UHGV virus genome: UHGV-0391423
DNA length: 5,140 nucleotides
Direction: 5' to 3' (one strand)
Source of the DNA: a virus
A model generated the notes under the pieces. That model did not search any database, was not told where the DNA came from, and saw only the letters and a program-made list of their open reading frames with translations. Shown here piece by piece: positions 515 through 2,207 of the stretch. How positions within the stretch are numbered: the stretch's first letter is position 1; each line of letters begins with the position of its first letter. A program made the position numbers and the translations under genes.

Positions 515-1456
515 TTATCTATTTACATTCTTAAAAGAATTGTAAATCTCTCTCTTAATTTTTCCCTGCTGAACATGATAATCATATATCTCTGTCCAGT
601 GTAAACCATACTTAATCATCAATTCCTTATTACACTCTAATATATAATCTTCCATTCTCCGTCTATACTCTAAGTACATTTCATTCAAATGAACATTATC
701 AGAATTTTCAGCATATTTCAAAAAGCTTTTAGGGATTCCAAGCTTTTGACCTCTAGAGTCATATATAAACCCATTAGTAAGAATTTGTTCATAATTTTCT
801 AAAAAATAATCTATTCCTAAAATTTTCTTAGGATAAACAACATAAGGTTTTCTTACAACTTTTCCATTGACTACAAAGTCATCTGATTTAATTTCTGAAA
901 ATTTAGTAATATACTTTACCATATAAGGAGCAGTATGTTCATTAACATCTCCAACATCAACAAACCCAGCTTTCCAAACAGATTCAAGAAATTTTGATTT
1001 ATAACAATTATAACCTTTCTTTGACTTATAAAAATATTTTAAGTCTGAAGGTTTATAGCCAAACATTATCATATGAAAATGAGGTCTACCATTTTTTTCT
1101 CCATACTCTCCAGATACTAAATATTTTATTTTACCTTCAAATCCATGATATTCTAACTTCCTTCTAAGTCTCTTCATAAATTTTTGAAAATAGGTATGAT
1201 TTAAAGAACCATTAGGGAATACCTCTTCCAAATTATCATCATCTACTGTAAGAGTTAAAAAACATATCTCATTATAACTATATTTTGTAAGTTCATATCT
1301 TACTCTTTGAGCAAGTGAAGTCCTCCATTTCTTTTTACACTCTGGACACTTACCACAAGGAACAATAACACTTCTAGTAATATCAGCATCTTTAGGATTG
1401 AACATATATTTATGCTCTGATCTATCCCAATAGATTTTTAAAGGAGACATACACAT
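515..1456 (-). CDS. Replication initiation protein (VP4 / phiX174 gpA-like HUH rolling-circle endonuclease), 313 aa
   Basis: The translation carries RCR motif I FLTLTVDD, motif II (HUH) RPHFHMIMFG and motif III with paired tyrosines APYMVKYITK, which resembles YVAKYVNK of phiX174 A. The N-terminal CGKCPECKKKW is the CxxC zinc-ribbon typical of microvirus Rep. The SD is AGGAGttgaagagtaATG. The start ATG at 1456..1454 shares an A with the TAA of the upstream ORF (TAATG). Confidence 0.9.
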   Translation of the reverse strand: MCMSPLKIYWDRSEHKYMFNPKDADITRSVIVPCGKCPECKKKWRTSLAQRVRYELTKYSYNEICFLTLTVDDDNLEEVFPNGSLNHTYFQKFMKRLRRKLEYHGFEGKIKYLVSGEYGEKNGRPHFHMIMFGYKPSDLKYFYKSKKGYNCYKSKFLESVWKAGFVDVGDVNEHTAPYMVKYITKFSEIKSDDFVVNGKVVRKPYVVYPKKILGIDYFLENYEQILTNGFIYDSRGQKLGIPKSFLKYAENSDNVHLNEMYLEYRRRMEDYILECNKELMIKYGLHWTEIYDYHVQQGKIKREIYNSFKNVNR

Positions 1457-1713
1457 TACTCTTCAACTCCTATAACATTATATCTAATACTTAAATACAT
1501 ATCTTCAAAAGCATAAAATTCTATAAAACATTTTCTATCTGCTTTGAAAGCTTCAAACAAAGTTTTTAAACGTTCAATTCTATCAAAACTATACAATATT
1601 CTAATATTTAACACTCCAGGTTCTTTACAATCAAAAAAAGCTGGAAAATCCTCTTCATGTAAAATTTCAAAAAAAGACTGTAATTCTTTAAAATAGTAAT
1701 ATGCGAACATCAT
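1456..1713 (-). CDS. Hypothetical 85-aa protein, aromatic and acidic, translationally coupled to Rep
   Basis: The SD AGAGGTG is followed by T8 and then ATGATG at 1713/1710. The stop TAA overlaps the Rep ATG by 1 nt. I recognise no motif. Gene packing supports it being real. Confidence 0.55.
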   Translation of the reverse strand: MMFAYYYFKELQSFFEILHEEDFPAFFDCKEPGVLNIRILYSFDRIERLKTLFEAFKADRKCFIEFYAFEDMYLSIRYNVIGVEE

Positions 1714-1740
1714 AAAAAAAACACCTCTTATTATATATTG

Positions 1741-1768
1741 TGTATATAATTAATAAAAGATGTGTAAA
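1741..1768 (-). promoter_or_regulatory. Candidate sigma70-like promoter TTTACA-N16-TATACA for the orf85-Rep-...operon
   Basis: On the minus strand the sequence is tatTTTACAca tcttttattaatta TATACA caatatataataAGAGGTG. The -35 matches 5/6, the -10 matches 4/6 and the spacer is 16. The region is very AT-rich, so chance matches are likely. Confidence 0.2.
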
Positions 1769-1841
1769 TATTATAAAATTCGTTTGAAAAAATAACAATT
1801 TAGCGTAAAATTAACATTATATTTAGTTTAGTTAACTGATG

Positions 1842-1878
1842 GGACTAAATAATAATTATTTTAGATAATTTTTAACTA
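1842..1878. repeat. Direct repeat family in the non-coding region. ACTAA(AT)AATAATTATTTTA[G/A]ATAATTTTT occurs at about 1845-1876 and again at about 2052-2080. GGACTAAAT also occurs at 1842-1850 and 1892-1900, and GGGAAGAAA at 1883-1891 and 2001-2009.
   Basis: By eye, taataattattttagataattttt (1850-1874) and taataattattttaaataattttt (2057-2080) differ at one position, and the shorter exact repeats are as listed. Confidence 0.6.
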
Positions 1879-1963
1879 GAATGGGAAGAAAGGACTAAAT
1901 TAAAATCTTCTCAAACTACCTTTAAATAATACTTAGAACAAATTTTATTAAATTTTGTGTCAA

Positions 1964-1997
1964 GGGGGCTTATATAAAACAAGGAATATAAGCCCCC
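1964..1997. repeat. Perfect 12-bp inverted repeat (GGGGGCTTATAT / ATATAAGCCCCC) with a 10-nt loop. A GC-clamped hairpin in an AT-rich non-coding region.
   Basis: 1964-1975 is the exact reverse complement of 1986-1997, and the loop is aaaacaagga. It is flanked by more G/C-tract islands, gggaagaaaccccctcgg at 2001-2018. Confidence 0.85.
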
Positions 1998-2165
1998 TTT
2001 GGGAAGAAACCCCCTCGGTAATAATTATATACCATTTTTTTCTTAAAAAGTCAACTAATAATTATTTTAAATAATTTTTGAAGTTAGCGGACTTTTTAGC
2101 GGAGCTAAAGACGGCACAGTTACATTAATTTTATTTATAGTTTTTTGAGTGCCTCTCCGCACTTT

Positions 2166-2194
2166 AGTAAAAGAAAAAGCACCCTTTCGGGTGC
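2166..2194 (-). terminator. Rho-independent terminator downstream of the 166-aa gene. On the minus strand it reads GCACCC-GAAA-GGGTGC followed by TTTTTCTTTTACT.
   Basis: A 6-bp GC stem (2179-2184 / 2189-2194) with a GAAA tetraloop on the minus strand is followed by a T-run, the complement of plus aagaaaaa at 2171-2178. It lies 13 nt after the TAA at 2210..2208. Confidence 0.6.
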
Positions 2195-2207
2195 GGTATA
2201 GGGAAAG

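Follow-up and report, generated by a model that had tools for sequence, protein, structure and literature searches.

The gokushovirus UHGV-0391423 occurs in two forms, circular and integrated, the latter at a palindromic 11-6-11 site beside a conserved host gene for an Xer-like recombinase. Its complete genome (5140 nt, referred to here as the window) contains a 494-nt stretch, positions 1714–2207, that an initial annotation had described as non-coding and had proposed as a candidate replication origin or complementary-strand priming site. The stretch is indeed non-coding, running from the orf85 start at 1713 to the VP3 stop at 2208. We conclude that it is probably the composite control region of a temperate Fusobacterium gokushovirus, holding an integration cassette and two conserved structures; the integration function had previously been overlooked. 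Gokushoviruses are among the commonest phages of gut viromes, and hosts and lifestyles are known for very few of them. The present results would assign a whole gokushovirus clade to Fusobacterium, a genus of medical interest. They would also make this clade temperate through hijacking of a host recombinase, so that the enterobacterial precedent would reach a further phylum and what seems to be a one-recombinase system.

Prophage junctions

Exact look-up of the orf85 and VP3 proteins returned, besides circles, bacterial contigs of 16.7–24.8 kb. In these, the phage is flanked by esterase/nagA/nagB genes on one side and by the gene for a 325-aa tyrosine recombinase on the other. Alignment of the window to the contigs by blastn placed the right prophage end at 1806 in L009, L010 and L015 and the left end at ~1828–1875, the integrated copy in L015 being 99.97–100% identical to the window. 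Integrated copies with junctions at the attP core were found in Fusobacterium contigs L009, L010, L015, L112 and L081, and empty sites in L042/L043. The circular form is represented by two 5170-nt contigs with 30-nt terminal overlaps; since these match the window identically, the window is the complete circular 5.14-kb genome.

The attP core reads ACTAAATATAA-TGTTAA-TTTTACGCTAA on the sense strand (11+6+11; Table 1). Compared with attB/attR, it agrees at 10/11 positions of the left arm, 6/6 of the spacer and 5/11 of the right arm, which is degenerate. The attR sequence is AC(C/T)AAATATAA-TGTTAA-TTATATGTGGT, and attL joins the host left arm and TGTTAA to the degenerate right arm of the phage. 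On insertion, the left half of the phage site and the right half of the host site combine into a complete attR; attL stays degenerate. The core common to attL, attR and attP is A(C/T)(C/A)A(A/C)ATATAA-TGTTAA-TT, and polymorphisms put the crossover within ATATAA-TGTTAA-TT: the attR of L015 carries the phage T at arm position 3, and the attL and attR of L010 differ at arm position 5. In a related strain, whose recombinase is 92% identical, the empty site is AACCAAACCAAATATAA-TGTTAA-TTATATTTGGTTTGGTT, with 17-nt perfectly palindromic arms. A relative with 75% VP1 identity (L045) is integrated beside a 332-aa recombinase gene.

Pfam and PHROGs scans of all phage open reading frames (ORFs) detected no recombinase domain; the proteins recognized were Rep, F capsid, scaffold and pilot only. 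The right-hand third of the region and its dispersed direct repeats had been read as origin elements. We assign them instead to an attP module, to which the prophage junctions of five bacterial contigs map exactly.

Host site and recombinase

In 15 of 25 Fusobacteriaceae loci the recombinase gene is followed after 93–216 nt by the host core, ATATAATTAACATTATAT, and in two more the core follows after 0.5–1.2 kb. The arms of the core are palindromic at up to 17/17 positions. Recombinase homologues with 53–76% identity occur in Fusobacterium, Cetobacterium, Propionigenium and Ilyobacter, and the closest named recombinase is a Fusobacterium necrogenes protein (94% identical). The nearest solved structures are XerC-like, XerA and XerD, with a weak match to XerH (E = 3e-6).

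Judged by its sequence and surroundings, the host site is probably a single-recombinase dif site. In 7 of 11 loci it is a point of gene convergence. GC skew turns from positive to negative at the site in 7/11 loci, with the cumulative maximum at most 0.6 kb away in 4/11. One recombinase rather than XerC plus XerD is suggested because the arms are nearly perfectly palindromic and the site stands beside a single Xer-like gene. In all likelihood the host recombinase, acting as a single-recombinase Xer, would catalyze both integration and excision; its link to the site rests on adjacency and on co-conservation of gene and site. Two findings weigh against this assignment. Four of the 11 loci show no GC-skew switch at the site. 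The recombinase is Xer-like, yet it falls under the curated cut-offs for XerC, XerD, XerS and XerA, with NCBIfam scores of 128 bits against 220 for XerA, 126 against 330 for XerD and 88 against 267 for XerS.

Two side observations concern the same loci. Across host loci L017–L042, the outer 5 nt of the core arms vary by species and remain mutually palindromic. In L018 and L034 the core lies 1222 nt and 525 nt, respectively, from the recombinase gene, as against the usual ~100–200 nt; other small elements may have inserted at these two sites. The searchable literature yielded no description of a recombinase-adjacent site in Fusobacteriaceae, a Fusobacterium dif site or Fusobacterium microvirus prophages.

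A palindrome shared by phage and host sites

The direct repeat reported earlier for the region is present, with some correction: the copies are 27 nt long, 93% identical with two mismatches rather than one, and spaced 206 nt apart. The shorter repeats reported with it were recovered as well, GGACTAAAT at 1842–1850 and 1892–1900 and TGGGAAGAAA at 1882–1891 and 2000–2009. The strict palindrome AATTA-N7-TAATT occurs twice in the whole window, once in each 27-nt copy. In Fusobacteriaceae host loci it is found at +48 and/or −40 from the core, centre to centre, in 13 of 16 cases, including the empty site; the background rate elsewhere is 0.043 per kb. Between the centres of phage copy 1 and the attP core there are ~48 nt, matching the host offset of +48. 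The stretch from palindrome to core in attP aligns with the empty attB over 66 nt without gaps. A second, pseudo-attP site after repeat copy 2 (GGTATATAA-TTATTA) was rejected, its spacing being off by 2 nt and no junctions using it.

Across Fusobacteriaceae the core, ~100–250 nt downstream of the recombinase gene, is bracketed by AATTA-N7-TAATT at +48 and −40. These bracketing palindromes look like an undescribed accessory architecture of a dif-like site. What emerges is a recombinase-adjacent site, conserved throughout the family, with accessory palindromes in fixed positions. The palindrome may bind an accessory factor that aids synapsis, a proposal for and against which we see an even balance. 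Telling against it is variant L014 (2154–2598), in which 49 nt are missing between the GGACTAAAT 9-mers, so that palindrome copy 1 is lost and the attP core kept; the palindrome might have been captured from a host and serve no purpose in the phage.

Two closely related genomes bear on how the cassette is built. In L002 (MG945222), the palindrome and its flank are nearly identical to the dif flank of Fusobacterium perfoetens, i.e. of another host's type. L001 (MG945371) is 99.5% identical to L002 through the two structures described below (elements b to d) and carries a small ORF there instead. Because the two genomes diverge at this point, the palindrome, core and promoter f behave as a cassette between the hairpin and the Rep operon, which suggests modular gain or loss of the integration cassette.

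Two other explanations of these data were weighed. The integrated copies all come from metagenome assemblies, and the apparent prophages might be chimeras of a strictly lytic phage. This is extremely improbable, as the same junctions recur in five or more independent samples and assemblers, the flanks show synteny, the phage sequences vary among samples (VP1 identity 88–100%), and the junctions lie precisely at a shared 14–19-nt core that has an empty-site counterpart. The 27-nt repeats, for their part, might be operators for a phage regulator such as orf85, or a chance similarity between AT-rich sequences, and have nothing to do with integration. Copy 2 does abut the −35 box of promoter c, and AT-rich matches are easily found in a region with a G+C content of only 20–27%. 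Against it stand the enrichment of the strict palindrome at +48 and/or −40 in host loci, the position of phage copy 1 at the host offset within the ungapped attB alignment, and the flank type of a different host, F. perfoetens, in phage L002; we hold this explanation to be improbable.

Comparison with known Xer systems

Enterogokushoviruses (EC6098-type) integrate by the XerC/XerD-dif route, and no gokushovirus prophages were found outside enterobacteria in 2020 (Kirchberger & Ochman 2020, PMC7062461). Like them, the present phage has no integrase and carries a 28-bp dif-like motif in the non-coding region near VP4; its prophage lies between a conserved host-type and a more degenerate phage-type motif, and circular and integrated forms coexist (PMC7062461). 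It differs from them in its host, Fusobacterium rather than Enterobacteriaceae, and in its nearly perfect palindromic host site beside a single Xer-like gene, with apparently one recombinase. A further difference is the conserved accessory palindrome at fixed spacing in host and phage sites. Apart from one arm that is TAATGTTAATT-like, the core shows no relationship to E. coli dif. The text of a 2022 microvirus survey makes no mention of Fusobacteria.

As in XerS/difSL, XerH/difH and XerA/dif, the recombinase gene adjoins a palindromic site with an asymmetric conserved spacer, often at a GC-skew switch. The core, xxxxxATATAA-TGTTAA-TTATATxxxxx, is unlike difH (TTGAAAA-CTATAA-TTTTCAA; this sequence and that of difSL are given in PMC3325230). 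The recombinase is likewise distinct, scoring below the XerS and XerA cut-offs and resembling XerH only weakly. To our knowledge, flanking accessory palindromes have not been described for the XerS, XerH or XerA systems.

Integrative mobile elements exploiting Xer recombination (IMEX), which include CTXphi, VGJphi, TLCphi and the gonococcal island in Vibrio and Neisseria, use the host Xer machinery at dif through a site with one degenerate arm and re-create a functional dif. The present phage shares with them a host-Xer-type site with one degenerate arm and the re-formation of a complete site on insertion. Unlike in CTXphi, attP is an ordinary duplex site and not folded single-stranded DNA (ssDNA) made of two inverted dif-like halves; the palindrome copies here are direct repeats 206 nt apart. 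From the closest known system, that of the enterogokushoviruses, the present case is thus set apart by the host phylum, the apparent single recombinase, the unrelated core and the shared accessory palindrome.

Order of elements in the control region

We take the sense strand (the minus strand of the window) to be the packaged strand, in line with established knowledge of Microviridae. Read along this strand, the proposed order is the VP3 terminator, element b, a sigma-70-type promoter (c), hairpin d with TTGACAC, and the integration cassette. The latter would comprise the accessory palindrome, the 28-bp dif-like attP core and promoter f. In the proposed scheme the host recombinase would integrate and excise the phage, and the re-formed attR would keep the host site intact. 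Integration would sever promoter c and the hairpin from the Rep operon, which promoter f would keep expressed. Promoter f is expected to remain with the operon after integration because it abuts the degenerate right arm of attP.

The earlier placement of the region between the terminator of the capsid-side genes and the orf85-Rep promoter agrees with our scans, which detected both the terminator (2194–2179 plus a T run) and the promoter (1798–1770). The VP3 terminator is kept in all relatives with a varying stem. Promoter c has the form TTGACA-17-TATATT in relatives, and its position is conserved in L045, L046, L115, L001 and L003; the scan did not list it because its −10 box ends in A.

Two conserved structures

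The perfect hairpin of the initial annotation is real, with a stem of 14 rather than 12 bp. Its arms, 1962–1975 (AAGGGGGCTTATAT) and 1986–1999 (ATATAAGCCCCCTT), are 100% complementary around a 10-nt loop, and it is the sole perfect local inverted repeat of at least 12 bp in the genome. Its stability as ssDNA was borne out by folding (−14.9 kcal/mol, z = −4.7, 0/200 shuffles as good); the whole region folded as ssDNA gave z = −6.2. An IMG/VR search for the exact hairpin sequence returned no match.

Conservation, put forward earlier as a check on the hairpin, was found: it is kept with compensatory changes in every relative that has the region and in three distant microviruses. It is present in L115, L001/L002, L046, L045, MT135380 (L355) and bajarodmic viruses 111 (L354/L360) and 993 (L357), and is followed by TTGACAC in all of them. 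Pairs were counted on a hand-anchored alignment, used because MAFFT alignments were out of register. Two-sided changes occur at 9 of 12 stem positions, and 95% of cells are paired against 67% in shuffles, none of 2000 of which reached the observed value. The loop CCTTGTTT is conserved except in one lineage. CTTG occurs at two places, in the loop (CCTTGTTTT) and at the 3' edge of the stem (CCCCCTTGACAC), where CTTGA is similar to CTTG^A, at which phiX174 and pC194 are nicked. This 3' flank is the sole CTTGAYA at an equivalent position common to the window, L046, L115 and L001. In bajarodmic viruses 111 and 993, the hairpin-TTGACAC unit precedes the Rep ATG by 22–26 nt and adjoins the ribosome-binding site. 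The GGGG(G)TTTCTT block upstream of the hairpin was found in the window clade, L115, L001, L046, L045 and L003.

Two simpler roles were tried and rejected. TTGACAC is not a −35 box, there being no conserved −10 box; in the two bajarodmic viruses this role is excluded because the Rep ATG follows within 22–26 nt. Nor is the hairpin a Rho-independent terminator: no T run comes after the stem, the adjoining sequence being TTGACAC on the sense strand and TTTGGG on the opposite one. The terminator scan listed only another, 5-pair stem (2006–1993).

Element b, a split stem, had escaped the initial annotation, as had the promoter at 2026–2054. Its outer stem S1 pairs GCGGAG with CTCCGC (2155–2160 with 2099–2104) and its inner stem S2 pairs GGCAC with GTGCC (2149–2153 with 2113–2117) below an AT-rich apical loop of ~30 nt. 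The 3' internal loop GTCTTTAG (2105–2112) is invariant. Among eight distinct sequences, 6 of 11 pairs changed on both sides and 96.6% of cells are paired; none of 500 shuffles reached the observed score, and slid controls pair at 30–58%. Every wobble pair of element b and hairpin d is G·T when read on the sense strand; the opposite strand would have an A·C mismatch in its place. Because G·T pairs occur on the sense strand only, both structures work in the packaged strand or in mRNA rather than as duplex palindromes. For element b, action as DNA is simplest, because it sits between the terminator and the next promoter and is probably untranscribed.

Among the distant microviruses, a GC-rich hairpin also lies upstream of the hairpin-TTGACAC unit (2260–2300 in L354/L360; 2200–2290 in L357), followed in bajarodmic virus 111 by GTCTTTCG (compare GTCTTTAG of element b). 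This hints at wider relatives of element b. The linear "partial genome" record of L003 (MG945195) stops inside the hairpin loop, directly after CCCTTG and without the 3' arm; assembly may have broken off at the inverted repeat, or the molecule may truly have ended at a nick. A block of ~120 nt surrounding the hairpin (alignment columns 191–313; window 1828–2017 compared with L009, L010, L112 and L014) is 100% identical within the clade, and the capsid proteins of the same members diverge by ~2–12%. This identical block implies strong constraint or recent recombination of a non-coding module.

Possible functions of the structures

An origin-type or other single-strand function of the region, as first proposed, is plausible in view of the conservation and the strand-specific wobble pairs; the repeats have no part in it. 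Hairpin d is possibly the Rep (+)-strand origin, nicked at CTTG in the loop or at the 3' edge of the stem, although we rate this somewhat short of an even chance. It is favored because the hairpin tracks Rep across gene orders and because its loop and flank are conserved in sequence and both contain CTTG. The related two-tyrosine Reps, those of phiX174 and pC194, have CTTG as their nick core, and the rest of the genome contains no phiX174 decamer. As at the phiX174 gene-A and pC194 origins (nick CTTG^ATA), a two-tyrosine HUH Rep (YMVKY) is accompanied by CTTG, here in a hairpin loop and at its 3' edge. Unlike in phiX174, there is no match to the 30-nt origin or its decamer, and the element is non-coding rather than inside the Rep gene; it is also a covarying hairpin, of which the phiX174 origin has none.

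Several observations count against an origin at the hairpin. The absence of a phiX174-like origin, noted before by eye, holds up, the decamer CAACTTGATA having no conserved match with up to 2 mismatches. Nicking could take place at either of two different CTTG motifs or in the GTCTTTAG loop of element b. With a promoter upstream of it, the hairpin could act in RNA. A strict scan for it in Chp1, MG945678, PQ006331 and KT264834 found none, and in MT135380 the gene after the hairpin is VP2-like, not Rep.

In line with the leading idea of the initial annotation, the hairpin, alone or with element b, might instead be a complementary-strand origin that folds on the packaged ssDNA as it enters and recruits host RNA polymerase, primase or a PriA-type primosome, so that minus-strand synthesis can be primed. 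Such a role would fit a stable non-coding structure on the packaged strand, the covariation of both elements with G·T pairs confined to the sense strand, and the position of the probably untranscribed element b. Signals of this kind rely on enzymes of the host, yet microviruses from pig, dog and mouse feces retain hairpin-TTGACAC, and retain it near Rep, despite different gene orders; no ssoA, G4 or n'-site signature was recognized and Rfam gave no match. On balance we think this role unlikely, though far from negligible. Somewhat less likely still is an RNA 5'-leader of the orf85-Rep transcript from promoter c, serving as mRNA stabilizer or protein-bound control of Rep. In all close relatives promoter c does precede the hairpin by ~25 nt, the hairpin of bajarodmic viruses 111 and 993 stands just ahead of the Rep start, and RNA tolerates G·T pairs well. 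A simple stabilizer, however, needs neither a conserved loop nor a conserved 3' flank, and promoter f stands between the hairpin and orf85 in the window clade. Moreover, integration splits the hairpin from the operon, and the lack of a T run makes it neither terminator nor attenuator.

For element b we suggest, with considerable doubt, a complementary-strand origin or a second Rep or packaging signal. The two short, covarying, strand-specific DNA structures are candidate plus- and minus-strand origins of gokushoviruses. We know of no gokushovirus plus- or minus-strand origin defined at present, and the searchable literature held nothing relevant on a gokushovirus origin hairpin. A broader and quite speculative scheme would have Fusobacteriaceae resolve chromosome dimers with an undescribed single-recombinase system, in which operator-like palindromes at fixed offsets flank the palindromic core and bind an accessory factor. 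The phage would copy one half of this arrangement and carry its second palindrome at the early promoter c, and hairpin d would be the Rep origin of a gokushovirus subgroup. If true, one and the same factor of the host would help integration along and keep the Rep operon silent, giving a 5-kb phage lysogeny control with neither an integrase nor a repressor of its own.

Genome features and relatives

The minus strand carries every long ORF of the window (Table 1). The Rep protein is a two-tyrosine HUH protein with an HUH (HFH) motif and YMVKY. GenBank relatives are Microviridae from pig and dog feces, with ~73% nucleotide identity in genes.

Table 1. Positions of genes and control elements in the window (strand relative to the window; a point marks features given without strand).
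Feature	Position	Strand	Content or basis
Pilot protein (VP2)	wraps across window ends, start ~241	-	Pfam/PHROGs scans
Two small ORFs	beside VP2 in gene list	-	ORF list
F-type capsid protein	4348-2726	-	Pfam E = 5e-134
Chlamydia-phage-type scaffold (VP3)	2708-2208	-	Pfam/PHROGs scans
Intrinsic terminator	2169..2194	-	directly after VP3 stop, GCACCCGAAAGGGTGC then TTTTTCTTTT; terminator scan
Element b, conserved split stem	2099..2160	-	covariation and independent folds giving the same structure
Direct repeat copy 2	2053..2079	.	palindrome AATTATTTAAAATAATT (2060-2076), directly upstream of promoter c -35 box
Promoter c	2026..2054	-	TTGACT, 17-nt spacer, TATATA after TGG (extended -10); read directly
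Conserved block GGGG(G)TTTCTT	2000..2014	-	between promoter c and hairpin; includes one GGGAAGAAA repeat copy
Hairpin d	1962..1999	-	14-bp GC-clamped stem, loop TCCTTGTTTT
Invariant 3' flank of hairpin	1953..1963	-	TTGACACAAAA, read as CCCCCTTGACAC; contains CTTGA
Segment between GGACTAAAT 9-mers	1842..1900	.	variant L014 deletion
Direct repeat copy 1	1847..1873	.	contains palindrome AATTATCTAAAATAATT (1854-1870)
attP core	1800..1827	-	28 bp, sequence in text
Promoter f	1770..1798	-	TTGTTA-17-TATAAT, for orf85-Rep operon; promoter scan, attL sequences
orf85	1713-1456	-	ORF list
HUH Rep (VP4)	1456-515	-	REP_ORF2-G2P strong, Rep_1 and Phage_GPA weak

GC skew, suggested earlier as a check, is flat or positive in 1714–2207 and negative in the rest of the genome; the profile reflects coding strand bias and gives no origin location. 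An Rfam covariance-model scan returned nothing in 1714–2207 at E ≤ 1 and two sub-threshold chance matches outside the region, and a tRNA scan found no tRNA.

Further relatives were sought by pattern. An IMG/VR scan with GCCCCCTTGACACAAAA gave three loci, one of them unrelated (L047). Scanning metagenome contigs for GGGGGC-N16-30-GCCCCCTTGACAC gave 67 loci, of which only L081, L103 and L112 are relatives. Among the matches listed for the IMG/VR scans GGGGTTTCTT...AAGGGG and AGGC...GCCGTCTTTAG, only L227 was new, and it is the same contig as L115. L081, L115 and L116 were rejected as circles, their contig ends falling within the region, and L116 was rejected as a deletion variant, its sequence being incomplete.

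The region is not the only sizeable non-coding stretch, as had been stated: a second gap, ~270 nt long, separates the Rep stop (515) from the VP2 start (~241) and holds tiny ORFs only. Those in 243–514 are hydrophobic, e.g. 362–496 on the minus strand (44 aa) and one of ~34 aa near 350–250, and could be lysis or exclusion peptides. A 72–73-aa ORF is annotated in the same gap in L009, L010 and L014. The small gene upstream of Rep is modular: in L112 (6110–6400, corresponding to window 1456–1713), orf85 is swapped for a protein 46% identical over 59 residues, in a prophage otherwise 90–97% identical.

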